The translations under genes and the position numbers were made by a program. A DNA stretch of 49,203 bases, taken from IMG/VR virus record IMGVR_UViG_3300025875_000043, one strand, 5' to 3'. The notes under the pieces were generated by a model. That model was not told the origin of the DNA. It did no database searches and was given only the letters and a program-made list of their open reading frames with translations. Positions 5,988 to 24,018 of this stretch are shown one piece after another. Source of the stretch: a virus. Position 1 is the stretch's first letter. Every line of letters starts with the position of its first letter.

Positions 5988-8060
5988 TCAAATTAGGCGG
6001 TTGGCTTCAGGGCGCTTATAAACGCCAATGTCATAAAGAATGTCGATAGCTTCGCTGACATAGCGGTCAAAGTCAAGGTCATGCGGGATGGCAGGGGGAA
6101 GCGTCATAAGCGGGCGGGCACCTTCGGTCTTTGCCACCTTGTTGCCTGATGCCGCATAGTTGATTGTTCCGGTTTCGCCTTGCGCGTAATACCAACGCAC
6201 AGCCTTGCCGAGATAAACGCCGTCCTTTTCAGCGCCGCCCTTGACGTGTTTGACCGCCACAAACTTCTTCAGATCGCAGCAAGCCATGATGGTTTCGTGA
6301 ACCGGCGTGCCAACCGCTAGGTATTCTTGCACGGCTTCGGAACACACATAAGCTTCAGGGTTTTTGCTAAGCACGCTATTTTGTGCCGAACCACGTTCGC
6401 AATAGACCCCCTTGGTTTTGACTTCCGGCCGATTGCTACCTTCCTTCAGTTCCTTAATAGCAATATAGTTGTTCACGTCGCGGCTATACAGTGCCGAATA
6501 GCGGGTTTCTTCGGTGACAAAGCCGGTGCGCCCTTCCCAAATCGTCATAACGTTTTCAAGGTCAGCCGCCTTGTTCTTGGGGCACTTATACACCGCGCCG
6601 TCAGTGTTGGCGCTAATGCACGGTATGCCGGCCAACTCCACCATTTCGATTTGCATAAGAAGCGCAAGCTGGCCGGTAATCGTCACCTGTGCCAGCAAGT
6701 CAGGCGAATAAATATCGGAATAGAAGTTGCCAAGCTTTCCGAACGTGCCGTTAATCGCAATCTTCAATCCGGCTTCAAGCGGGTTCTTGGCCTTCTTCAG
6801 CGCTAGGCGACGCATGACAAGATTGCGGTAAACTTCAAGGAACGCCGGCCCCAAGTGTTCGGGGAACAGTTCATTGTTCAACACGATATAAGGGTAATAG
6901 CTGGCAACGTCGCGGTCTATGATAAGCGTATTGTCATCGGCGCGGTGGAACACGCTTTCTTCGTTGCTGTGTAAGCCGCCCATTGCAACGGTGTAGGTTT
7001 GACCGTTCAGGTTGACCAAGATGACGTGCGACCTGACGCCATCCTTTTCCTTGGTGCGGACCTTCAGCAACGGAAAGTCTTTTGCAAGGTCAGCCATATT
7101 GTGGGGAAACTTAGGCTTACCGCCTTTGCTAATTTCAATTGGAATTATCGCGACAAACTCTAGCAATTGCTGAAGCTGTGGCGTCTTAAATGAAAGCCAA
7201 TCGAACACGCGATAATTGAAGGTTTCGCCAACTTCCCAACTTCGGCGTTTGCCAATGGGGCCAAGCTTTTCAAGTTCGCTGACAATGACCGCTTCGGCAA
7301 TCTGTGCGTCAGACTTTGACCGCAAATCTTGGTTGTATTCGCGGCCAAGGTCTTCGCGCATGGTGATGAAGGGTTGAAGATGATTGAACAAACCAATGGT
7401 CAAGTCATCATCATTGATATTATAGTCACGAACGTTAGCCGCCTGTTCAGGCGTTAGTTCAGTTGCAATGTCATAAGGCAAGTCTTGCATTCGTTCGCAA
7501 TGCAAGCGCCCGCCGTAAATCTTTAGGGACGCTGAAATTGGCGCTACTGGCAACAAGTCAATGTGATTGACGTGCAATGCCTTCACGCCATATTTGCGTT
7601 CGACCTGATAGGGTTGCATTTCTTCTTTAATAATTTCATCGCTGACTTCCTTTAGCCGGGGCGCACGAACACCCTGGCAAGCGACAAGCGTTATCGGCAA
7701 GTCATAGGTGCGGCTATTGAAGCCAATAATAAGCCAACGGTAAAGGATATAAGTTAGGTAATTCTGCCAAACGTCGAATGGCGCGGCCATGCCGTTGACA
7801 AAGTAACCTTCAGGTGTGTCTTCAAAATAAACGATTTTGCCAGTGTCAATGCACTTGAAAGACACAAGCCAATAATTAGAATAACTTTCAACGTCGAACA
7901 CGGCCCTTTTGGAGCCGTGCAAGACTTCATCAGGGCCAAAAAGTTCATAAGACTTAGCCGGCGGAATAGGCGTGCTAAGGAAGTCACGCGAACGCAAAGC
8001 CGGGTCAAGCTTCTTGTCCGCGCGCTTACGCCTATCCGGCCGGCTATCGTCAAAGAACAT
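5988..8060 (-). CDS. Family-B DNA polymerase with 3'-5' exonuclease domain
   Basis: Exo motifs VFDVESYSNY, GFNSRTYDLP and DYNINDDDL. Pol motif A DRDVASYYPYI (DxxSLYPS-like), motif B KIAINGTFGKLG (KxxxNSxYG-like) and motif C ISANTDGAVY (DTDS-like). Confidence 0.85.
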   Translation of the reverse strand: MFFDDSRPDRRKRADKKLDPALRSRDFLSTPIPPAKSYELFGPDEVLHGSKRAVFDVESYSNYWLVSFKCIDTGKIVYFEDTPEGYFVNGMAAPFDVWQNYLTYILYRWLIIGFNSRTYDLPITLVACQGVRAPRLKEVSDEIIKEEMQPYQVERKYGVKALHVNHIDLLPVAPISASLKIYGGRLHCERMQDLPYDIATELTPEQAANVRDYNINDDDLTIGLFNHLQPFITMREDLGREYNQDLRSKSDAQIAEAVIVSELEKLGPIGKRRSWEVGETFNYRVFDWLSFKTPQLQQLLEFVAIIPIEISKGGKPKFPHNMADLAKDFPLLKVRTKEKDGVRSHVILVNLNGQTYTVAMGGLHSNEESVFHRADDNTLIIDRDVASYYPYIVLNNELFPEHLGPAFLEVYRNLVMRRLALKKAKNPLEAGLKIAINGTFGKLGNFYSDIYSPDLLAQVTITGQLALLMQIEMVELAGIPCISANTDGAVYKCPKNKAADLENVMTIWEGRTGFVTEETRYSALYSRDVNNYIAIKELKEGSNRPEVKTKGVYCERGSAQNSVLSKNPEAYVCSEAVQEYLAVGTPVHETIMACCDLKKFVAVKHVKGGAEKDGVYLGKAVRWYYAQGETGTINYAASGNKVAKTEGARPLMTLPPAIPHDLDFDRYVSEAIDILYDIGVYKRPEANRLI

Positions 8061-8063
8061 AGT

Positions 8064-9452
8064 TTAGCCCTGACCCCAACCTTGGCTTTGGTCTTCATCT
8101 TCAGGTGGTGGCACGTCATCGTCAATGCCATCAGAACTGTGGATTTGCGCCCCGCCAATGGTGTCGCTTGTTTCATCAAAACCTTCACGATAAGTGACGG
8201 TTGTGGCCAAGCCGACGATTGCCCCGCGCACAGTGCCAGGCACCGGCCCGTTCGGGCCAATGGCTTCCCCGCCGAAGAAATAGGCGCGGTCACCATACGT
8301 CGTCAGGTCAATGGTCTTGGCATAAGGCGACACGTCCTTAATCAGCTTGCCCTTGAACCGCTTGCCGCCTTGAAGCCCTTGCACTTCATAGATAGCACCA
8401 GCGCCTTGGTCAGTGTGCGACATAACCATGTTGTCGCCAAATGTTATCCAATCGTCATCGGTGAACTTGCTGACCGCCTCCACCGCGTCGAACAAGCCGG
8501 TAAGCGTTTCGGCGGGATGGCTGTTGACATTCAGCACCGCGCCAACGTCGGGCCAACGATCCTGATAGCACTGTGTCTTGATCCAAGCGCCGCCTTCAAA
8601 GTGGAAGGTGACGCTGGCAACGGTGCCGTCGCCGCCCCAACTGAAGCCGAAGCCGACGAACGGCTTTGTGACCTTGGCCACAGCCGCCGTGAACGTCTTA
8701 GGCAGCACCATTGCCGGGGGAAGGTCAACGCCGTGGAAGTATTGCAGAACCGCCGCCCCATTCGTGCCGGTGCAAACATAAGCTTCAAGCAACAATGACG
8801 CATAATGCGCCTTATCTGCCGCTTCGCTCGCCAGCACGCCGCACACCTTGAACGCTTCCTTGATTTGTTCGGTGACGGGTGCAATGTTCAGGTCAGGCTT
8901 GGGCATGTGCAATTCTTCAGGATGCAAGCACGGCACCAAGGCACGCAACTTATCACCTTTGACCGAAAGCTGACCGTTGGGGGTTTCGCTGATAACCAAC
9001 GACTTGCCGCAACGCTTCAAAGCCGCTTCAAGCTTGTCAAGGCGGGGCGCAAGGGTCAGTTCTTCGGCAATGGGATGACCCGCCGACACCTGGCCGTTGA
9101 AAGTAATTGCTTCCTTCCCGATAAGACGAACCACGGCCTTCCAAGTTTCCGCGTCGTCATCAAACGTGCCCACACTGACGAAGGCCAGTGCGTCAAGAAG
9201 GTTCTGTGCCTGTGTCGGCTTTGCCGGCCGGCCGCGTCGTGTTCCTGCCATGTTAGCTTTCCTTTCGATTGTTGGCCAATAGACTTCTATTGTCCATTCT
9301 AGCAACCGCGACCGTCCTGGCCTTGGGTTTGTGCGGTCTAACTCGCCAAGGCGTTGCCGTTCTTTATCGTGCGCCACCCGTTCGGCTATCCTGTCCTTGG
9401 CGTTAGGGAAGCTTTCAAGATAAGCCCGGTATATGTCATGTTCGCGCCCCAT
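8064..9452 (-). CDS. Possible phage sliding clamp (DnaN-like fold) with an N-terminal extension and an AT-hook. An alternative internal start exists at 9251.
   Basis: The domain-like repeat pattern resembles beta-clamps (LLEAYVCTGTNGAAVLQY vs ATDGHRLA; QDRWPDVGAVLN vs fPDYxxVIP). It contains RRGRPAKP. A strong SD (GAAAGGAAAGCTAAC-ATG) precedes the internal Met at 9251, while ATG 9452 abuts the upstream stop (TAAATG). Confidence 0.45.
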   Translation of the reverse strand: MGREHDIYRAYLESFPNAKDRIAERVAHDKERQRLGELDRTNPRPGRSRLLEWTIEVYWPTIERKANMAGTRRGRPAKPTQAQNLLDALAFVSVGTFDDDAETWKAVVRLIGKEAITFNGQVSAGHPIAEELTLAPRLDKLEAALKRCGKSLVISETPNGQLSVKGDKLRALVPCLHPEELHMPKPDLNIAPVTEQIKEAFKVCGVLASEAADKAHYASLLLEAYVCTGTNGAAVLQYFHGVDLPPAMVLPKTFTAAVAKVTKPFVGFGFSWGGDGTVASVTFHFEGGAWIKTQCYQDRWPDVGAVLNVNSHPAETLTGLFDAVEAVSKFTDDDWITFGDNMVMSHTDQGAGAIYEVQGLQGGKRFKGKLIKDVSPYAKTIDLTTYGDRAYFFGGEAIGPNGPVPGTVRGAIVGLATTVTYREGFDETSDTIGGAQIHSSDGIDDDVPPPEDEDQSQGWGQG

Positions 9453-9683
9453 TTAGAACGGTATTTCATCCGATGGCATATAGCTATCGCAACCGAATGC
9501 CACCACGCGCGGCGGCGGGTTGCCGTTGTGCATCATGCAATAAAGGTTTGGTTCCTTGAACGAAGCACAGTTGAAACAACAACGCTTGCTTCGTTCCACC
9601 GCCTTTGCAACAGCGTCGTGAATTGCCTTTACCAAAGCCGCCCGGTCTTTCACTTGGCTTTCGTTTACTGGGTCAGAACTCAT
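9453..9683 (-). CDS. Small Cys-rich (Zn-ribbon-like) protein ending in an SSB-type C-terminal tip (SDEIPF)
   Basis: 76 aa with CCFNC...C...C and C-terminus ...YMPSDEIPF-stop. Overlaps the helicase 3' end by 11 nt and abuts the next start. Confidence 0.65.
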   Translation of the reverse strand: MSSDPVNESQVKDRAALVKAIHDAVAKAVERSKRCCFNCASFKEPNLYCMMHNGNPPPRVVAFGCDSYMPSDEIPF

Positions 9684-11460
9684 ATCCCATTATCTCCGGT
9701 GTTTGCTTGTTGACCCAAACGTTGATGCGCCGGGGTGCCCTTAGTTCGCCAATCAATTCAAGCACCTTTGCGTTAGTTGTCGGCACGTCTTCATCCCAAC
9801 CGGGTTCCCAACTGTGCCGGCCGTCGCTATAGTGGAACCTTTGCCGGAACCAATCGCGCGACTTCTTACGAAAGAACGTCACCGGGCTTTCAACCGATAT
9901 GTATTCGTAAAAGGTCTTCAACCCGCAAAAGTAAGCAACCCGAATGCTTGCCCGCCCGCTGGCCTTGCTAGTGTGGGCAGTTAGAACCATATGTTTGACT
10001 TCATAAGGTTCAATCTGTGGAAGGTCCGACCGCAACAGTTCAAGGTTCGACGCATTGCGGTTAAGCTTTTCGGCAAAGGTAAATTCAGTGCCGCACACAA
10101 TACATTCACGCGCCGACGCATGGTTATAGGTGTTGCATTGAACGCCGTTAATGATTGCTTCGCAAATCCTGACCGGCGCGTCACCTGGCGGGCCGGAACC
10201 CTTCGGCCGGGGGATAACCGGGTCATTGATAGGGCCAAGCCGGCGAGTGTTGCCAGCGAAGTCAAGCACCAAACAATTGTTTTTGATGAACGGGAAGTTG
10301 GTTGCCAGTTCGCGGTTGGTTTCAGTCAGATAATCATAAGGACGTGTGCCACGGCCAAGCATTTGAACCCAAAGCCCTGGCGACATAGTTGGCCGAAGCA
10401 TCGCAATTAGGTCAATCGGCTTGTGGTCAACGCCAGTGGTCAGCTTGTTCATGCTAACGGCGGCGCGGGCTTTGCCGGTCTTCCACGCCGTAAATGCTTC
10501 GTCGTTTTCGGCATCGGTTTTGTTGCTGTGCATACACACAGTTGGAATGCCAAAAATGCTGTTCAGCATTTCAGCAACGTGTTCGGCGTGTTCAACACCG
10601 CTGGCGAAGATTAGCCAACACGCGCGGTCTTGGCCTTCCTCCACCACTTGCTTCAGCGCGCCATAAGTGACGGTTTCTTTGTCAACCGCCGCCTGAAGTT
10701 CGCCGGCCTTAAACTCACCTTGCGACATACCGACGCCGGAAACGTCAAGCGTGACGTTGGTGCGACGTGGGATAAGCGGGCACAAAAAGCCATCGGCCAA
10801 AAGCCGGTTGAACCCGTCAATGTTGCACAAATCATAAACGACGTGCGTAAACAACGGCCCGTTCGTCATTGGCCCTAAGCCAAGACGGTAAGGCGTGGCG
10901 GTGAAACCAATGACCTTCAGCCAAGGATTGATATTAGGGCTGTTCGCATTGATGCCAGCCGGCCCTTTGGTCAATTCTTCAATAAACTTCACATAGCTTG
11001 TGTCGGCGTTAGGGCTAAGCAAATGCGCTTCGTCAATGCCGAGCAAGTCACGCTTGCCGAGCAACGGGAACTTGCCGACCATTGATTGCACGCCGCCAAA
11101 GATAAGCGGTTGCATGGTGTCGCGTTGCTTCAAGCCGGCGCTATAGACGCCAAGTGGTGCCAGCGGCCAAATTTCTAGCATTTTCGCCGCGTTTTGCCGT
11201 ATCAGTTCCTTAACGTGCGTCGCCATGATAGCGCGGGTGCCAGGATACATGATAAGCGCACGCCGGAAAAATTCAGCGATGACCACCGACTTGCCGGTGC
11301 CAGTAGGAAGACAGACAAGCGGGTTGGCGGGTTCTTGCGAGTGCGCGCGGGCCGGATCATTGAAGAAGTCGAACAGTGCTTGCACCGCTTCTTCTTGATA
11401 CCAACGAAGCTTAATCGGCTCTAATACCGGCCCGCCGTTATGTCCTATGCCAGCCGACAC
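9673..11460 (-). CDS. Superfamily-2 DEAH-box DNA helicase with a C-terminal zinc ribbon
   Basis: LPTGTGKS (motif I), GIDEAHLL (motif II), GFTATP (motif III), QMLGRGTR (motif VI) and CEAIINGVQCN...CIVCG. GTG start lies directly after the upstream TAA. The N-terminus carries GIGHNGGP. Confidence 0.85.
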   Translation of the reverse strand: MSAGIGHNGGPVLEPIKLRWYQEEAVQALFDFFNDPARAHSQEPANPLVCLPTGTGKSVVIAEFFRRALIMYPGTRAIMATHVKELIRQNAAKMLEIWPLAPLGVYSAGLKQRDTMQPLIFGGVQSMVGKFPLLGKRDLLGIDEAHLLSPNADTSYVKFIEELTKGPAGINANSPNINPWLKVIGFTATPYRLGLGPMTNGPLFTHVVYDLCNIDGFNRLLADGFLCPLIPRRTNVTLDVSGVGMSQGEFKAGELQAAVDKETVTYGALKQVVEEGQDRACWLIFASGVEHAEHVAEMLNSIFGIPTVCMHSNKTDAENDEAFTAWKTGKARAAVSMNKLTTGVDHKPIDLIAMLRPTMSPGLWVQMLGRGTRPYDYLTETNRELATNFPFIKNNCLVLDFAGNTRRLGPINDPVIPRPKGSGPPGDAPVRICEAIINGVQCNTYNHASARECIVCGTEFTFAEKLNRNASNLELLRSDLPQIEPYEVKHMVLTAHTSKASGRASIRVAYFCGLKTFYEYISVESPVTFFRKKSRDWFRQRFHYSDGRHSWEPGWDEDVPTTNAKVLELIGELRAPRRINVWVNKQTPEIMGYEF

Positions 11461-12408
11461 TTAGGCAATCCTTGCGTAACTGGCACACCCTTGCGGGATG
11501 ATATATTTAGGTATGTTGGCGTTATGCACCTGGCAAAACCATTCCGCGCCTTCGACGGGAAAAGCGTTGCGACAGCTTCGGCAATTCTTTGTGGGCACTT
11601 CCCCACGGTGACACAGGCCGGCAAAGTCGCAATACTTACAGTCAAAGAACGTGTCGGTTTGTGCTATCTTCGGCGGGCGCGTTTGGCTGAACACAATGCC
11701 TTCAGCCTTCCTAAAAAGGTCATCGGCTTGCCGGAAGTCTAGCTTAACAATTTCAAAATATAGTTCGTCGGTTTCTTTGTTGACCGCGCAATAAAGGCCA
11801 TAATTGAAGTTATAAGCGCGGCCATAGGAACACATTTGCCGATAATGTTGGGGCTTGCTCTTTTGCACGCCGTCGCCGCCAGTGCGCGGCGCGTCCATTT
11901 TATCCCATGACGGCTTTTTGCCGGCTAGCTTGGCAAACGACTTTTCGTTGTGCGTCTTGAACTCGCCAAGCCAAATGATATGTTCAGCCGGAATGCCATA
12001 ACGTTCCGGCGGCTTCATCATGGCGTCAAGTGACCCGCCGAAGTGCCCTTTAGCACCGACGATGCGAAATTGCTTCTTGGTTTCAGGGTCAAGTTCGCGC
12101 ACCTGAAAACCGATGCCTTCAAGCCAACGAACAAAGCGGGCTTCTTCAGCGTGCCCACGGTTGAACAGCCGCAACATTCGGCCGCTGAACGCTTCAAAGC
12201 GCAACCACCTAAACGTATTCCAGGCGTAAGCTTGGCAGTCATTGCCGATGATCGAAGCGCCAAGATGCGTGCGCGGGTCTTCGGCAAATTCTTCGCGGCA
12301 AAACTTGTCAATGTCGGCTTGGATTTGAAGCACTAGCCGCTTGCGGTCAATAGGGTCAGCCAAGTCTAGGGCCGGCCCGCCATTGTGACCAATGCCAGGT
12401 TGGTTCAT
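11461..12408 (-). CDS. PD-(D/E)XK exonuclease, Cas4/RecB-like, with an Fe-S cluster Cys set
   Basis: GSLDAMM...WLGEFKTHN (D...ExK). An N-terminal Cys (GNDCQAY) plus C-terminal CKYCDFAGLC (CX2CX5C) matches the Cas4/AddB pattern. There is an extra CRSC...CQVH...C. The N-terminus carries GIGHNGGP. Confidence 0.75.
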   Translation of the reverse strand: MNQPGIGHNGGPALDLADPIDRKRLVLQIQADIDKFCREEFAEDPRTHLGASIIGNDCQAYAWNTFRWLRFEAFSGRMLRLFNRGHAEEARFVRWLEGIGFQVRELDPETKKQFRIVGAKGHFGGSLDAMMKPPERYGIPAEHIIWLGEFKTHNEKSFAKLAGKKPSWDKMDAPRTGGDGVQKSKPQHYRQMCSYGRAYNFNYGLYCAVNKETDELYFEIVKLDFRQADDLFRKAEGIVFSQTRPPKIAQTDTFFDCKYCDFAGLCHRGEVPTKNCRSCRNAFPVEGAEWFCQVHNANIPKYIIPQGCASYARIA

Positions 12409-12497: not shown

Positions 12498-13436
12498 TTA
12501 GCGCGCCTGACCCCAACCGGCAGCACCGCCGCCCGCCTGGCCACCGCCCTGACCGCCCCAACCGCCGGCCGCGCCGCCCTGTTGACCGCCGCCCTGACCT
12601 TGGCCGGCCTGGCCACCCTGACCGCCCCAAGCGCCTTGCTGACCGCCTTGACCGCCGCCATTCTGACCCTGACCCGCGTTCGGATCGGTGCCGCCTTGCT
12701 GGCCACCCCAACCACCGGCTTGACCGCCCTGGCCACCACCGTTGCCGAAGCCGCCGCCTTGCTGACCGCCGCCTTGCTGTTCGCCGCCCTGACCGCCACC
12801 GCCAAAGCCGCCACCGCCCTGACCGCCACCGAAGCCGCCTTGCTGACCCTGGCCACCCTGACCCTGGCCACCGCCGTTGTCGCCGCCCCATGACCCGGTG
12901 CCCTGAACGCCGCCAGCGGGCGGGCCGTTCGGTGCGCCACCGCTGTTGCCAGCCTGACCCGCGTTGGCCTGTGGCCCCGCGCCGGCCTTGCCAGGGGGGT
13001 TGCCGTTCACGTCATAGATGGCCTTGACTTCGGTGTAACCCTTGGCGCGGGCTTCTTCACCCTTCTGCAAGCCGACTTCGACGACGAACGGGATGCCATG
13101 AAGTTCCTGTGTGTCGTTGAACTGGAACTTGCCGATAACGTGGCAATACGCCGAAAGCTGGCCGTTCGCAATACGCACCACTTCGGGGTTGGAGTGCATA
13201 AGGTTCAGACGATCAGTGTGCTTCACGTCCTTTTGCGGGCCTTCGACGCACGCCAGTTCAAGGCCAAGATAGCCGCCCTTGACGTTGCCGAAGCTGTCCT
13301 TGGTATCAGTCGGTGCGCTGTTGACGATAACGACCTTATACTTGACGTTTTCGCCATTCGGGCCGGCCGGAAGACCGCCACCGCCAGCACCATAAGACGG
13401 CGTGTGCTGTTGTGCGTTGAACGAATAGGCAACCAT
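12498..13436 (-). CDS. DUF669-type phage ssDNA-binding-like protein with a C-terminal Gly/Gln-rich tail of about 170 aa. The alternative start at 13604 would add 56 aa.
   Basis: MVAYSFNAQQ...YKVVIVNS...RLNLMHSNPEVVRIANGQLSAYCHVIG matches my memory of the DUF669 core. SD GAAGGATTAAGCGAA precedes ATG 13436. It lies next to a Sak4-like ATPase, the usual pairing. Confidence 0.7.
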   Translation of the reverse strand: MVAYSFNAQQHTPSYGAGGGGLPAGPNGENVKYKVVIVNSAPTDTKDSFGNVKGGYLGLELACVEGPQKDVKHTDRLNLMHSNPEVVRIANGQLSAYCHVIGKFQFNDTQELHGIPFVVEVGLQKGEEARAKGYTEVKAIYDVNGNPPGKAGAGPQANAGQAGNSGGAPNGPPAGGVQGTGSWGGDNGGGQGQGGQGQQGGFGGGQGGGGFGGGGQGGEQQGGGQQGGGFGNGGGQGGQAGGWGGQQGGTDPNAGQGQNGGGQGGQQGAWGGQGGQAGQGQGGGQQGGAAGGWGGQGGGQAGGGAAGWGQAR

Positions 13437-13929: not shown

Positions 13930-14781
13930 TCAAAGGTTGCGGTTATAAAGGTCAATGCCGCACGTCTTATAGATTGCGTCGGCAAGGTAATTCCAGCCTT
14001 GGGCGGCGGGAATGGCGACAAGGCCGGTCATGCCATAGCGATTGCCGGCAACCCATTGTGGTTGACGTTCAACGGCAAGTTGCCGGCCTTGATTGGAGGA
14101 AACGGCGCGGTTCGGGCCTTTGCCATCTTCCGACTTCATCACAAAGTAAGGTTCGTGAAGGAAGCCGATAAGGTCAGCCCATTGCGTAATAAATTCGCGC
14201 TTTCCGTATTCCTTTTGATTCTTTGGCGAATGCAACAACAAATCCCATTGCTGAAATTCGCCATGTTGCGGGTCTTGCACCAATGCCGGAAAGACGTGGC
14301 AAGTGACAATGGTGTTGACGCCGTAACGGGTCAGTTCGTCGGCGTAGCGGCTCCACATAGCGAACATATCATTGGCAATGCTGTAAGCCTTGCCATAACC
14401 GCCAAGCGCGCTGTTCAGCGTCAGGCCAGCCGGGTTGCCAGGCTTCCAAGCCTTATCCAACTGCAATGTCGCTTCGTGAATAAGCCGCTCCAAAGCGGTG
14501 GCGCTATCCCACACAATCGACGTGCCGGGGCCGATACGCTTAGCGATAGCCGCCGACCGCAATTCTTCGCATAGCTGGCTGACCGCCGCCCATGTGTGAA
14601 GTTCGGGGGTCTTTGCCACCGTCATAGCGGCGTAACCCATTTCAAGCGGCACTAGCAACGCGCCAGGTGCGCCACATGCCAGCGTCGTCTTGCCCATCTT
14701 TTCAGAACCGGCAATGACGATGCGTTGACCAACTTGTGTGCGGCCGGTTGTGACACCGCCAAGAATGCTTTGACCGGCCAT
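13930..14781 (-). CDS. Sak4-like RecA-fold ATPase (AAA_24 type single-strand annealing / recombination protein)
   Basis: Walker A IAGSEKMGKTT and Walker B-like SIVWDS. Size and position beside DUF669 fit. Confidence 0.7.
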   Translation of the reverse strand: MAGQSILGGVTTGRTQVGQRIVIAGSEKMGKTTLACGAPGALLVPLEMGYAAMTVAKTPELHTWAAVSQLCEELRSAAIAKRIGPGTSIVWDSATALERLIHEATLQLDKAWKPGNPAGLTLNSALGGYGKAYSIANDMFAMWSRYADELTRYGVNTIVTCHVFPALVQDPQHGEFQQWDLLLHSPKNQKEYGKREFITQWADLIGFLHEPYFVMKSEDGKGPNRAVSSNQGRQLAVERQPQWVAGNRYGMTGLVAIPAAQGWNYLADAIYKTCGIDLYNRNL

Positions 14782-15952: not shown

Positions 15953-16150
15953 ATGACTTCATCACTTTTAAGGGCAACTTTGCTGTTGCTTGACCAAACC
16001 GCGCTTGAAGATTGGAAGCGTATTGCTGACCAATGCGACGTTTCCGTTGGTTGGTTGCGGCTTCTTTGTGACGGGAAAGTCAAAGAACCTGGCGTGAACA
16101 AGATTGAACGTGTATATTGCGTTCTTTCCGGCAAGGCATTGGAACTGTAA
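15953..16150 (+). CDS. Small helix-turn-helix DNA-binding protein (Cro/YdaS-like)
   Basis: 65 aa. LEDWKRIADQCDVSVGWLRLLCDG fits an HTH. It is the first gene of a divergent unit and lies upstream of the primase. Confidence 0.45.
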   Translation: MTSSLLRATLLLLDQTALEDWKRIADQCDVSVGWLRLLCDGKVKEPGVNKIERVYCVLSGKALEL

Positions 16151-16152
16151 GA

Positions 16153-18555
16153 GTGTCATTCCAACGCATTCCCGGTGAACTGAAGTCTTTACGGCAATGG
16201 GTTATCTGGCGACTTGAAAAGCGCGAAGGTGCTAAGCCCACAAAGGTTCCCTATGCGCCGCGCCCCGGCGGCATAAAGGCCAGTGTAACCGACCCCAACA
16301 CATGGGGCACGTTCGATGAAGCTTGCGCCGCGCCTATGACGTGTGTGGAGCCGTGCGACTCTAGCGCCCCGCTTGAAGCAACCGGCTTCAGTGGCATTGG
16401 TTTTGTCTTCACTGACAATGACCCTTACGCTTGGATTGACCTTGACGACACGCACGGCGACAAGGAAGCGTTTGAACGCCAGGTGCTAATTCATACCAAG
16501 TTCAACAGTTACAGTGAACTTAGCCCTAGCGGCAATGGCCTTCACATTATCGTCAAGGGCCGGCTTCAGCATGGCCGGCGACGCGCTGCAATTGAGATAT
16601 ACAGCAACGAACGTTACGCCACCTTCACCGGCAACGTGTTCAACGACGCGCCTATTGAAGAACGCCAAGAACTTCTTGACATTCTCTTTGAAGAAATGGG
16701 CGGCGCGCCGGTCACATATGACCCGGCCAAGGATCAACCACAAACGCTAGACGATGACGCGGTGCTTGCGATGGCATCGGCGGCGGTCAATGGTGAAAAG
16801 TTCAGTCGGCTATTCACTGGCGACTTTCAATCAATGTATCCGTCGCAATCCGAAGCTGACTTTGCCCTTGTTGATATTCTGGCGTTCTATACACAGAATA
16901 TGGCACAGATTGCCCGGTTGTTCCGGCAATCGGCTTTGGGCAAGCGCGACAAGGCACAGCGTGACGATTATGTTGGCTATATGGTCAACAAGGCGTTTGA
17001 CCGGCAATTGCCGAAGGTTGATATTGACGGCCTGAAGATTGCCTTTGAACAGCGAAGGCTAAACGCTAACGTGCCGGCGGGGGAACCGGGCGGAACACCC
17101 GCCGACACGGCCAGCGGGGAGGCACACCTAGACCCGTCGAAACAAGTAGGGCTTAGCGCCGGCACGCCGTCGTCACACGCGCCCGGTAACGCTGTCAACC
17201 CCTTCCCGCCTGGCCTTATCGGGGAAGTCGCGCAATTCCTGCTAGACGCCGCGCCGCGCCGCGTGCCTGACATTGCCTTGGCCGGTGCCATCGCCTTGTT
17301 ATCCGGCATCACTGGCCGCGCGTACAACGTCAATGGCCAGGGCTTGAACCAATATATTCTTATGTTGGCGGCAACCGGCGCGGGCAAAGACCTTATCGCA
17401 TCCGGCGTCAGTAAGCTTATGGCCGAAGTGGTGAAGTCAACCCCGGCCGCTGACGATTTTAAGGGGCCGGGTGAATTGGTCAGTTCGGCCGGCATAATCA
17501 AATGGCTTGACAAGAAGCCCGCCGTGTTCAGCATCCTTGGCGAATTTGGCGTGAAGCTAAAGGAAATGGCGGACCCGCGCGCCAACGCGCACCTGGCCGG
17601 CCTAGAGCGCATCTTATTGCAGCTATACAGCAAGTCAGGCCAGGGCAACGTTCTTGACCCGATGGCGTATAGCGACACGCAAAAGAACACGTCGGCTATC
17701 AAGTCACCGTCGCTGACTATCCTTGGCGAAAGCGTGCCCGAACGGTTCTATGAAATGCTTGACGACACGATGATTGCCAGCGGCTTGTTGCCGCGCTTCA
17801 TGGTGTTTGAATACAAGGGGCCAAGACATTACCTGAACGAAGACACCGCCCACGCTAAGCCGTCGTTCCGGCTTGTGCAACAAATCGCTGACTTGTGCGC
17901 GCAAAGCCTGACCCTGGCACACAATGGCAACGTGTTCAACGTGCCACAGGATAAGGCGGCAACCGAAAGCTTCAGGGAGTTTGAACGATGGACAACCGAC
18001 CAAATCAATCAAGCCAAGTCGGAAGTCATGCGTCAGCTATGGAACCGCGCGCACCTGAAGGCCATTAAGCTGGCCGCTGTGTGCGCCGTTGGCATCAACA
18101 TGCACAACCCGGTCATAACGATCAATGAATGTATGTGGGCAACACAAATGATCGTTGACCAAACCAATCGGCTAATCGCCAAGTTTGAGACTGGCCAAAT
18201 CGGCTTTGCCAATAATGACGAAGGCAAGCAATTAGCGGCTGTGGTGAAGTGCATTAGCGAATATCTGAACGAACCACATGGCCGCTATGCCAAGTATCAG
18301 CCGAACGCCGATATGCACCGAAGCGCGGTTATACCTGAAAGCTATATCAGCCGGCGGCTTATCGCGGTGGCGGTGTTCCGCAATGACCGCATGGGTTCGA
18401 CCAATGCTATCAAGCGTTCACTGAAGATGCTTATGGAAGCTGACGAATTGCGAGAAGTGCCTAAAGCGCAAATGCAACAGTCATTCGGAAGCGGCCCGCG
18501 TGCCTATGTGGTGGCAAACGCAAGCCGCTTCCTTCCTGGCGGACCTGAAGACTAA
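16153..18555 (+). CDS. Bifunctional primase-polymerase (AEP) with PriCT-like and DUF3987-type helicase/NTPase domains
   Basis: WVIWRLEKREGAKPTKVPY, GIGFVFTDNDPYAWIDLDD (DxD), SPSGNGLHIIVKG, SEADFALVDILAFYT and Walker A LAATGAGKD. GTG 16153 lies 2 nt after the HTH stop (TTG 16117 is also possible). Confidence 0.8.
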   Translation: MSFQRIPGELKSLRQWVIWRLEKREGAKPTKVPYAPRPGGIKASVTDPNTWGTFDEACAAPMTCVEPCDSSAPLEATGFSGIGFVFTDNDPYAWIDLDDTHGDKEAFERQVLIHTKFNSYSELSPSGNGLHIIVKGRLQHGRRRAAIEIYSNERYATFTGNVFNDAPIEERQELLDILFEEMGGAPVTYDPAKDQPQTLDDDAVLAMASAAVNGEKFSRLFTGDFQSMYPSQSEADFALVDILAFYTQNMAQIARLFRQSALGKRDKAQRDDYVGYMVNKAFDRQLPKVDIDGLKIAFEQRRLNANVPAGEPGGTPADTASGEAHLDPSKQVGLSAGTPSSHAPGNAVNPFPPGLIGEVAQFLLDAAPRRVPDIALAGAIALLSGITGRAYNVNGQGLNQYILMLAATGAGKDLIASGVSKLMAEVVKSTPAADDFKGPGELVSSAGIIKWLDKKPAVFSILGEFGVKLKEMADPRANAHLAGLERILLQLYSKSGQGNVLDPMAYSDTQKNTSAIKSPSLTILGESVPERFYEMLDDTMIASGLLPRFMVFEYKGPRHYLNEDTAHAKPSFRLVQQIADLCAQSLTLAHNGNVFNVPQDKAATESFREFERWTTDQINQAKSEVMRQLWNRAHLKAIKLAAVCAVGINMHNPVITINECMWATQMIVDQTNRLIAKFETGQIGFANNDEGKQLAAVVKCISEYLNEPHGRYAKYQPNADMHRSAVIPESYISRRLIAVAVFRNDRMGSTNAIKRSLKMLMEADELREVPKAQMQQSFGSGPRAYVVANASRFLPGGPED

Positions 18556-23232: not shown

Positions 23233-23510
23233 ACGCCGATGAAGATTGCGCTGTGTGCGGGCATGACACACCGTGCCAATGTGGTACGCGGGTTGCCAAG
23301 GTGCCGGTGCTTAACACCGCAACACTAGGGCCGGTGCTTAACACCGCAACACTAGGGCCGGTCAGGTTCGACCCTGACCGCGACGCCGAACGTGCGCGCC
23401 TTGTGCGCGAAGCCATGCGGGCTTGCGATAGTTCGCTTTTGGCCATAGCGTCCAACTATTGCAGCGACGCCACCTTGGCCAAGCTTGGAAGGATGCTGAA
23501 ACATGGCTGA
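23229..23510 (+). CDS. Hypothetical Cys-rich protein containing a duplicated PVLNTATLG nonapeptide
   Basis: GTG 23229 overlaps the upstream TGA (the start is uncertain, as TTG/GTG alternatives exist from 23190). Contains CAVCGHDTPCQC. Confidence 0.45.
   Translation: MNADEDCAVCGHDTPCQCGTRVAKVPVLNTATLGPVLNTATLGPVRFDPDRDAERARLVREAMRACDSSLLAIASNYCSDATLAKLGRMLKHG
23304..23357 (+). repeat. Perfect 27-bp tandem duplication (2 copies plus 5 bp of a third)
   Basis: ccggtgcttaacaccgcaacactaggg x2, in frame. Confidence 0.95.
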
Positions 23511-24018
23511 AACGCCGCCAATCACATATTTTCTTCAAGGGCACGCCGCCGCTGAAGCCGGCCAGCCGGAAAGCGCCAATCCCTTGTTGTTCGACGCCTG
23601 GCCGTTTCAGGCTTGGCTTGCCGGCCATCGGTTCTATGCCGAGTATGCCAGCGCGCGGGTTCTTCAGCATGACAGCCCGCTTGAACGGGTTGACGTGACG
23701 CCGCACGAACAAGGCCGGGTCGCACACGGCAAGGGCCGGCCTTTGGAGGCTTGCCCTTACGAACCGCAAAGCCATGATTGGCGCATGTGGCGCTGTGGTT
23801 GGGTTGAACGCCTGAACGAATTGACCACCGAAGACAGCGGCGAACAACACGCCAACTGTGGTGCCAGGCGCTTGGCTGTCATCATTTACGCGATTATTTC
23901 AGTCATCATTTATGCCGCCATTGTGTGGGCATTTGTAGCTTTACCATCGGCCCGTAACACCGGATATAAAGCCTGTGTTAGCAAAGCCGGTAACACTTGG
24001 GTAACTTGTAAGCGTTAA
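23503..24018 (+). CDS. Membrane-anchored protein with two Rmf/CrpP-like repeats
   Basis: GRVAHGKGRPLEACPYEPQSHDWRMWRCGWVE fits the Rmf/CrpP-type motif (G..A..G....CPY....W..GW). A weaker first copy is QGHAAAEAGQPESANP...WLAGH. C-terminal TM helix LAVIIYAIISVIIYAAIVWAFVAL. Confidence 0.45.
   Translation: MAETPPITYFLQGHAAAEAGQPESANPLLFDAWPFQAWLAGHRFYAEYASARVLQHDSPLERVDVTPHEQGRVAHGKGRPLEACPYEPQSHDWRMWRCGWVERLNELTTEDSGEQHANCGARRLAVIIYAIISVIIYAAIVWAFVALPSARNTGYKACVSKAGNTWVTCKR

Follow-up and report, generated by a model that had tools for sequence, protein, structure and literature searches.

A 76-residue phage protein with a bacterial SSB-type C-terminal tip, encoded after a RadD-like helicase, as a candidate docking adaptor

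Results

Small gene and its product

The viral DNA stretch analysed here (IMG/VR record IMGVR_UViG_3300025875_000043; 49,203 nucleotides, referred to as the window) contains a replication/recombination module in which a small gene encodes a protein of 76 amino acids (aa) with the C-terminus ...PSDEIPF. The C-terminal tip of bacterial SSB (single-stranded DNA-binding protein), the SSB-Ct, reads ...DFDDDIPF in Escherichia coli and is a hub motif docking chi, PriA, RecQ, RecO, ExoI, RadD and others. A preliminary description of the window had pointed to an SSB-like end on the small protein, and translation of the open reading frame (ORF) 9453..9683 (-), MSSDPVNESQVKDRAALVKAIHDAVAKAVERSKRCCFNCASFKEPNLYCMMHNGNPPPRVVAFGCDSYMPSDEIPF-stop, bears this out. 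A frame or stop error near 9453-9470 would have been a source of doubt; none was seen, and homologues terminate at the same position. The identical protein (P0001) is already recorded from a 49-kb metagenomic contig. The ATG of the gene (9683..9681) is situated within the end of the superfamily 2 (SF2) helicase ORF 9673..11460, the overlap being 11 nucleotides (nt).

The frequency of such an end was determined among the ORFs of 92 sources, comprising the window and related loci. The pattern [IVLPTM]P[FYW] terminated 81 of 91 small-protein homologues vs 8 of 7852 unassigned ORFs, and none of the latter eight had the acidic context. Within the window, no further ORF of 45 aa or more ended in this pattern. 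Because the pattern is rare among unassigned ORFs and usual in the homologues, the likeness to the SSB tip is considered a selected feature and not a chance resemblance. The 76-aa ORF encodes a genuine and conserved protein with an accessory role in the phage replication/recombination module.

Conservation of the tip

The small protein matched phrog_23504 with E 1.2e-8 over profile positions 11-73 of 73, through the last residue. A profile search yielded 97 homologues, every one of which ends in x-P-[FYW]. An exhaustive hidden Markov model (HMM) search extended the family to 664 clusters at E<=1e-10 and 1530 at E<=1e-3; the best 150 clusters of this search were all 56-129 aa long. Conservation of the terminal residues was assessed in 238 members. 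The last residue (-1) is F in 97% and residue -2 is P in 99%, while residue -3 is I in 76%, V in 14%, P in 5% and L in 3%. An acidic residue (D or E) is present in 68% at -5 and in 56% at -4. The window protein has D72 and E73 before the tip; on average, family members have 2.1 acidic residues at -8..-4. Identity across the rest of the protein is only ~30%, and besides the tip only four Cys and a PP pair are invariant in the family alignment. A terminal [DE][DE]IPF, the conservation of which had been proposed as a check on the preliminary description, is thus among the most conserved features of the family.

Two close homologues terminate in PSDEVPY and PSDEIPF. Others were found by tblastn in cultured phages of Variovorax (VCLv21, DTGEIPF), Paracoccus (R3, HVDEIPF), Pseudomonas (PBPA162, HMPDIPF) and Sphingomonas (Eidolon, HIDVIPF). 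The E. coli phage Halfdan, with MG1655 as host, encodes a family member, gp53, ending in ...HDFDIPF. The same tip consensus is found in phages of alpha-, beta- and gamma-proteobacteria and of cyanobacteria. A scan of genome contigs for the named hosts of tip variants gave pattern matches, but no matched stretch was a relative.

The gene has escaped annotation in several reference genomes. It is unannotated in the reference records of Paracoccus vB_PmaS-R3, Sphingomonas Eidolon, Xanthomonas Suba and Stenotrophomonas ytsc_ply2008005c, and the VCLv21 record has no annotation whatever. The unannotated ORF is intact and has the IPF end in both cases that were translated, R3 (L002 4001-4198) and Eidolon (L004 4001-4204). 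Pfam and NCBIfam scans gave no match for the small protein. PADLOC gave none either, which carries little weight, since its models cover defence-system proteins and not phage counter-defence.

Distribution of the tip within the module

To place the tip among the genes of the module, ORFs were called mechanically and assigned to seven module families by jackhmmer/hmmsearch from window seeds. The census covered 116 non-redundant loci with both helicase and clamp, and the tip was defined as [IVLPTMC]P[FYW]-COOH (hereafter the PF tip). In 115 of the 116, at least one of the small protein, clamp and helicase had a PF tip. The small protein was the only carrier in 97 loci, and shared the tip with the helicase in 4 and with the clamp in 2. 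The clamp was the only carrier in a further 12 loci, of which 6 have a tip-less small protein and 6 have no small gene. One locus had no carrier. Thus the small protein is tip-less or absent in 13 loci, and in 12 of these the clamp has the tip (small-protein tip vs clamp tip 2/101/12/1, Fisher p = 1.7e-13). Parsimony on the clamp tree gave about 5 independent changes of carrier. The single tip-less locus (L216) lacks the small gene and has a 175-aa DnaQ-like exonuclease ORF between helicase and clamp.

Individual phages illustrate the exchange. Ab26 and RcTitan have no small gene, and their clamps terminate in ...NYEDDIPF and ...DPDDEIPF respectively. Langgrundblatt2 has a small protein, gp55, ending in ...YENDIPF, and its clamp, without a tail, ends at the globular part. 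Clamps with the tip are longer (346-431 aa vs a median of 336), the tip being located on the added tail. These tails are of 20-100 residues and disordered. In one clade the helicase ends in ...DDEIPF or ...DDLPF and the small protein in PPF; helicases with the PF tip have no nearby 4-Cys domain. Since relatives carry the tip on a clamp tail or helicase, in near-complementary fashion to the small protein, it is not simply a tip detached from SSB. Judged from sequence, the PF tip behaves as a feature of the replisome and appears to belong to the helicase/clamp side of the module.

Body of the small protein

AlphaFold2 (AF2) modelling with the family alignment gave a predicted local distance difference test (pLDDT) score of 85.8. 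The model comprises a helix (residues 8-32), a Cys-knuckle domain that is compact, a short helix at 58-63 and the tail; pLDDT is ~70 at the last residues vs ~90 for the core. C36, C39, C49 and C65 of the core are invariant, together with the PP of a PPPR motif, and the last Cys is separated from the tip by only 5-11 residues. The Cys spacing, C-x2-C ... C-x15-C, is unlike the two CxxC knuckles of a zinc ribbon. A Foldseek search of the model against PDB found no similar solved structure. BFVD matched uncharacterised small phage proteins and, weakly, a Cas4-exonuclease fragment and a 'zinc-ribbon domain protein' (E 1.4 for the latter). No oligonucleotide/oligosaccharide-binding (OB) fold was detected in the small protein, either by Pfam and NCBIfam or in the model, in agreement with the earlier statement that the carrier of the tip is no OB-fold protein.

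A counterpart of the core was located within the module itself. In hhalign the core aligned with the Cas4-domain exonuclease's C-terminal domain over 38 columns (probability 95.4%, E 2e-8), and tblastn cross-matches were obtained as well. The exonuclease domain has the pattern NCRSC...W.C...IP..[FI]I..GC, which is kept in nearly all relatives. It is placed C-terminal to the CX2CX5C cysteines, which we take, from what is known of Cas4/AddB nucleases, to be Fe-S ligands. The PF tip is absent from the exonuclease copy. Because the two 4-Cys domains are homologous, the small protein is a free-standing copy of the exonuclease module to which a helix and a tail are joined.

C-terminal ends of the SSB, helicase and polymerase

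The DUF669 SSB of the window ends in ...AAGWGQAR following a long G/Q-rich tail. A Trp is present within the last eight residues in 110 of the 112 distinct DUF669 SSBs of related loci (GGGWGAR, APPWGQR, PAWAQNK etc.), according to the pattern [PG][PG]W[GA]x[RQK] (window site 12501-12524 (-)). None of the 112 has the PF tip, and acidic residues in the last ten average 0.07 for these SSBs vs 2.6 for the small protein. The Trp tip looks like a docking tip in its own right. The preliminary description was accurate in stating that the SSB lacks an acidic tip and ends in ...GWGQAR. Its further proposal, that the tip function has moved to a separate polypeptide, is a fair description as far as it goes; the SSB has swapped tips and not lost one, and the clamp and helicase are carriers as well. 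A viral contig scan with the SSB of phage HK620, which has the PF tip, returned only near-identical prophage copies.

Two other proteins of the module have recurrent ends. The helicase terminates in E-[FYW]-COOH in 91 of 130 RadD-like helicases (window site 9676-9684 (-)). This end is found also without an overlapping small gene, in Ab26 (...SAEW) and RcTitan (...SCEW), and for that reason is conserved for its own sake; it may be a third tip. Both the Trp tip and the helicase E[FYW] vary more than the PF-tip consensus. FF or LF terminates 55 of the 70 polymerases in related loci, and 59 of the 70 fit a looser pattern of Q/K followed by hydrophobic residues (...PKQISFF, ...KQAALFF), and these ends look like a beta-clamp-binding motif. 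The window polymerase ends in ...PEANRLI (5991-6008 (-)). It has faint family-B signatures, and some relatives have a family-A polymerase in the same module.

Sliding clamp of the window

The canonical start of the clamp is probably Met68, at 9251, where the source gene call begins (P0243, 395 aa). The AF2 model of the clamp had a pLDDT of 91.4, and its top Foldseek matches were all bacterial DnaN (E ~1e-17, template modelling (TM) score 0.67-0.72). On the basis of the model it is a true three-domain beta clamp of the DnaN fold. The fold was resolved only through AF2 and Foldseek, since sequence searches gave no match: the clamp profile matched none of the PDB sequences, Pfam scans of 12 clamps gave no relevant match, and hhalign against E. 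coli DnaN alone was non-significant (probability 0.35%).

The acidic extension of the window clamp, ...SSDGIDDDVPPPEDEDQSQGWGQG, closes with an SSB-like Trp-type tip, and the counterpart tails in relatives terminate in DDIPF or DDVPF. Among 105 clamp homologues, 9 have the PF tip and 23 a Trp-type tip; several end in CxxC...CxxC, e.g. ...CPACNDEDPDCSVCT. At the other end of the protein, a 67-aa in-frame N-terminal extension (9252-9452 (-), MAGTRRGRPAKP...) is omitted from the source gene call. Its sequence is kept in the relatives P0308 and P0247 (...LEWTI..YWP.IER.AN-M), and because of this conservation long and short clamp isoforms may exist. In-frame clamp extensions of other relatives, starting MLSPCLNC..., are unrelated to that of the window. 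They were considered as fusions with the small protein and rejected, as they did not match the small-protein profile.

Gene neighbourhood

The genes for the Sak4-like protein, DUF669 SSB, exonuclease, helicase, small protein, phrog_947 'processivity factor' and polymerase are all encoded on the minus strand (Table 1). Among cultured phages, siphophages of Variovorax, Xanthomonas, Pseudomonas, Sphingomonas and Rhodobacter come closest, with patchy DNA identity of 65-70%. The helicase match listed in Table 1 points to a genuine RadD homologue.

Table 1. Positions of the small gene, its parts and the surrounding replication genes in the window
Feature	Position	Strand	Basis
Small-protein gene, 76 aa, stop codon included	9453..9683	-	phrog_23504 member, large family of small phage proteins
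Ribosome-binding site GGAGA, 9 nt 5' of the small-gene ATG, within the end of the helicase gene	9697..9693	-	read from sequence
Codons of the SSB-Ct-like tip D-E-I-P-F, free carboxylate after F76	9456..9470	-	family conservation of the last residues
N-terminal alpha-helix, residues 8-32	9588..9662	-	AF2 model
Putative metal-binding, zinc-ribbon-like 4-Cys core, residues 36-65	9489..9578	-	invariant columns, AF2 pLDDT ~90, hhalign
RadD-like SF2 helicase, ends ...IMGYEF; stop overlaps small gene by 11 nt	9673..11460	-	PDB 6jde RadD, E 1.9e-37
Beta sliding clamp homologue, long ORF, 462 aa	8064..9452	-	phrog_947; AF2 and Foldseek
Disordered acidic C-terminal tail of clamp, ...DDDVPPPEDEDQSQGWGQG, Trp-type tip as on the SSB	8067..8186	-	pLDDT 40-53, last 40 residues
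Cas4-domain exonuclease	11461..12408	-	phrog_1990, E 1e-88
Exonuclease C-terminal 4-Cys domain, homologous to the small-protein core	11464..11595	-	hhalign, tblastn cross-matches
DUF669 SSB, G/Q-rich tail, non-acidic Trp tip	12498..13436	-	domain and family matches, tail comparison
Sak4-like AAA_24 annealase, candidate PF-tip receptor by analogy with HK620	13930..14781	-	domain matches, PMC5928155
DNA polymerase	5988..8060	-	phrog_1252
Primase-polymerase/helicase (NrS-1-like HBD and DUF3987), likely replicative primase-helicase	16117..18555	+	

Linkage of the small gene was followed in cultured phages, in Logan, ENA, JGI and NCBI contigs, and in 80+73 IMG/VR loci. In nearly every context examined the small gene is directly 3' of the RadD-like helicase gene and usually overlaps it. 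There are two exceptions. In the Pseudomonas phage PBPA162 the small gene is located between queE and queC, at 2 kb downstream from the helicase gene; in the Sphingomonas phage Eidolon the two are kept apart by a 162-aa ORF. The gene after the small gene varies, and may encode the clamp, a ~100-aa HD/MazG-like protein, MazG, a YpsA-like protein or a 7-deazaguanine synthesis cluster. In the window the TAA of the small gene (9455..9453) immediately adjoins the ATG (9452) of the long clamp ORF. The small gene had been described as translationally coupled between helicase and clamp. The linkage that is conserved is with the helicase gene and not with the clamp gene, and coupling to the clamp is less certain than to the helicase because the source gene call starts the clamp at Met68.

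The 7-deazaguanine cluster (queE, queD, folE, queC) is inserted between the small and clamp genes in five loci (L003, L007, L008, L251, L252), and a TGT-like gene is annotated in the cluster of L251 and L252. Relatives with this insertion include the Pseudomonas Iggyvirus-type PBPA162, Microcystis phage Me-ZS1 and Synechococcus phage Yong-L2-223. Where a locus covers the upstream region, Sak4 is present in most cases. A scan of part of the window ORFs revealed no clamp loader. Elsewhere in the window, a 171-aa ORF (23503-24018 (+)) gave a sub-threshold Pfam match to RMF, the ribosome modulation factor (E 3e-6, 27.6 bits vs a cutoff of 27.9).

Discussion

In the mechanism that we favour, the small protein is an adaptor presenting a docking tip in trans at the phage replisome. 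The 4-Cys/helix body would anchor it there, the anchor partner probably being the co-translated helicase, and/or the clamp or the Trp tip of the SSB. In the manner of the SSB tip, the terminal Phe and its carboxylate would insert into a hydrophobic pocket of a client, with basic residues at the rim. That the docking tip is supplied in this way and that its clients are host SSB-interacting proteins is a tentative proposal, to which we give somewhat less than an even chance. As to the clients, we lean slightly towards those of the host over phage proteins such as the RadD-like helicase or Sak4. The host-like tip consensus is kept across host groups while the phage-specific tips drift more. A need for host SSB clients is suggested by the lack of a clamp loader among the scanned ORFs, together with an SSB of the phage's own that has no acidic tip.

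Several points weigh against this proposal. Precedents for a phage receptor exist, as the HK620 Sak4 requires the NDYPPF tip of the DUF669 SSB (PMC5928155) and the E. coli homologue of the adjacent helicase, RadD, binds SSB-Ct (PMC10238739). The host-like consensus would likewise be accounted for if a phage receptor had its origin in a host SSB client. The small-protein family is found in cyanophages too. Cyanobacterial hosts have, to our knowledge, no chi subunit in the clamp loader, so that chi cannot be the universal client. Of the 238 members, 12 are without any acidic residue at -8..-4, and about 5% have the PPF end. Finally, simple ORF calling underlies all counts of the complementary distribution, which reflect about 5 independent events.

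The receptor could accordingly be phage-encoded, the tip then being internal glue of the phage replisome and no hook for host enzymes. We regard this as a serious possibility, though one about which we are more doubtful than confident. The candidates are the pocket in RecA-like domain 1 of the RadD-like helicase (for activation or tethering), Sak4 as in HK620, and the polymerase as for T7 gp4/gp2.5. The helicase gene is the constant upstream partner of the small gene, usually overlapping it, while the downstream neighbour changes. The helicase is a true RadD homologue in which the hydrophobic pocket residues are kept in kind and R145 is K or R in 91% of 129 phage helicases; the binding of SSB-Ct to RadD, with a dissociation constant (KD) of ~5 uM, stimulates its ATPase (PMC10238739). 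E. coli RadD requires Arg21 as well as Arg49 to bind SSB-Ct, yet an Arg occupies these positions in only ~8% of the phage helicases; other basic residues are found close by. Sak4 is commended by the dependence of its HK620 counterpart on a PPF tip (PMC5928155) and by its presence in most covered loci, but the SSB encoded next to it has a conserved tip of another kind, and this Trp tip is the more obvious partner for Sak4. The polymerase is disfavoured, as the same tip is found together with two polymerase types that are unrelated to each other. Moreover, a purely internal pair of peptide and pocket could drift freely, yet the host consensus persists.

The remaining explanations are much less probable. 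A tip that copies the host motif, on a small protein in what from its gene content appears to be an early replication module, could be a decoy. As a soluble SSB-Ct mimic it would titrate host clients (RecQ, ExoI, PriA, RecO etc.), stopping host replication or repair, or blunting nucleases. When the small protein is without the tip, the sliding clamp or the helicase carries it, and this takeover speaks for localisation and against titration; the 4-Cys body, which is conserved and has its counterpart in the exonuclease, implies a specific anchor partner, which a decoy would not need. Such a role is therefore rated as improbable. Binding of the ...IPF end of the small protein (or, in some phages, of the helicase) to the hydrophobic cleft of the phage beta clamp is very improbable. 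C-terminal hydrophobic peptides are the usual clamp ligands, and in the window the small gene is just upstream of the clamp gene. However, the consensus [DE][DE]IPF is unlike QL[SD]LF, the polymerases already have the canonical-looking ends ...KQISFF or ...QAALFF, the clamp itself has the tip in 14 of 116 loci, and the gene downstream is not constant. An equally slim chance is given to a tip with no docking role, in which the terminal PF would serve the 4-Cys fold as a structural cap, or act as a degradation/processing signal, and the likeness to SSB-Ct would be convergent. The short distance of 5-11 residues from the last Cys and a model without a similar solved structure would suit such a cap. 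The same tip, however, ends disordered clamp tails and helicases that have no 4-Cys domain nearby, the 4-Cys copy of the exonuclease does without it, and the tail of the model has a lower pLDDT than the core.

A broader version of the adaptor proposal, which we consider unlikely as a whole, is that the replisome runs on a code of C-terminal tips: the SSB and some clamps would have a Trp tip, the helicase E[FYW], the polymerase Q..LF, and the mini-adaptor or clamp the host SSB tip. The 4-Cys domain would read the Trp tip, and the IPF tail would pass the complex to host SSB clients, e.g. the clamp loader. If true, the phage SSB tip would be converted to a bacterial tip, and the host SSB interactome would be hijacked only at phage forks.

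In bacterial genome maintenance the SSB C-terminal tip is the central hub motif, and it is also a drug target. If host clients are recruited, the small protein would illustrate how host enzymes are borrowed by phages that have a partial replisome and have replaced the host SSB. If the receptor is phage-encoded, the small protein would be a new accessory subunit and regulator of RadD-like helicases or Sak4 annealases, relevant to recombineering. On either reading, small phage ORFs called 'hypothetical' gain a function-bearing feature in their hundreds. Direct tests are possible, since the family includes gp53 of the E. coli K-12 phage Halfdan.

Comparison with known systems

An acidic C-terminal tail with an aromatic end, acting as a docking peptide, is a known principle, found in bacterial SSB, T7 gp2.5/gp4 and HK620 SSB. 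In T7, gp2.5 (SSB) and gp4 (helicase-primase) have acidic C-terminal tails with a Phe end, which bind the polymerase; these tails were reportedly treated by Kong and Richardson in 1998 (cited in PMC5928155). As in T7, an acidic, aromatic-ended tail is present in the phage modules on several replisome proteins including a helicase, and by analogy may be a docking element. Unlike T7, the motif is of the bacterial IPF type, and it is carried by a beta clamp, by a RadD-like SF2 helicase or by a dedicated mini-protein.

The consensus of the bacterial SSB tip is DDDIPF (PMC5872125). The tip of the small protein resembles it in its location at the extreme C-terminus, the near-invariant Pro-Phe-COOH, Ile/Val/Leu/Pro at -3, the preceding acidic residues and the flexible segment. 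In contrast to bacterial SSB, the 76-aa protein is made up of a helix and a 4-Cys domain, with no OB-fold and no long disordered linker.

DUF669 proteins generally 'have acidic C-terminal tails' (PMC4889955). The DUF669 SSB of HK620 ends in NDYPPF, as was confirmed in its sequence, and these six residues are required for the binding and stimulation of Sak4 (Hutinet et al. 2018, PMC5928155). The window module, like HK620, pairs a DUF669 SSB with an adjacent Sak4/AAA_24 annealase. Unlike HK620, the SSBs of this clade end in the Trp tip, and a separate protein, whose gene comes after that of the helicase, has the PF tip.

For its binding of SSB-Ct, E. coli RadD uses a hydrophobic pocket ringed by Arg21, Arg49 and Arg145 (Osorio Garcia et al. 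2023, PMC10238739). The homologous helicase encoded next to the small gene keeps the pocket residues in kind and has K/R at 145. It differs in that Arg21 and Arg49 are not conserved, and its ligand would be a mini-protein or a clamp tail, not SSB.

The literature searched contained no description of the small protein, of an SSB-type clamp tail or of a one-tip-per-module pattern, and we know of no described case of an SSB tip on a dedicated mini-protein or a sliding clamp. What is new in comparison with these systems is a dedicated mini-protein with a bacterial-type tip, the same tip on the tails of phage beta clamps, and the near-obligatory pattern of 'one tip per module'.

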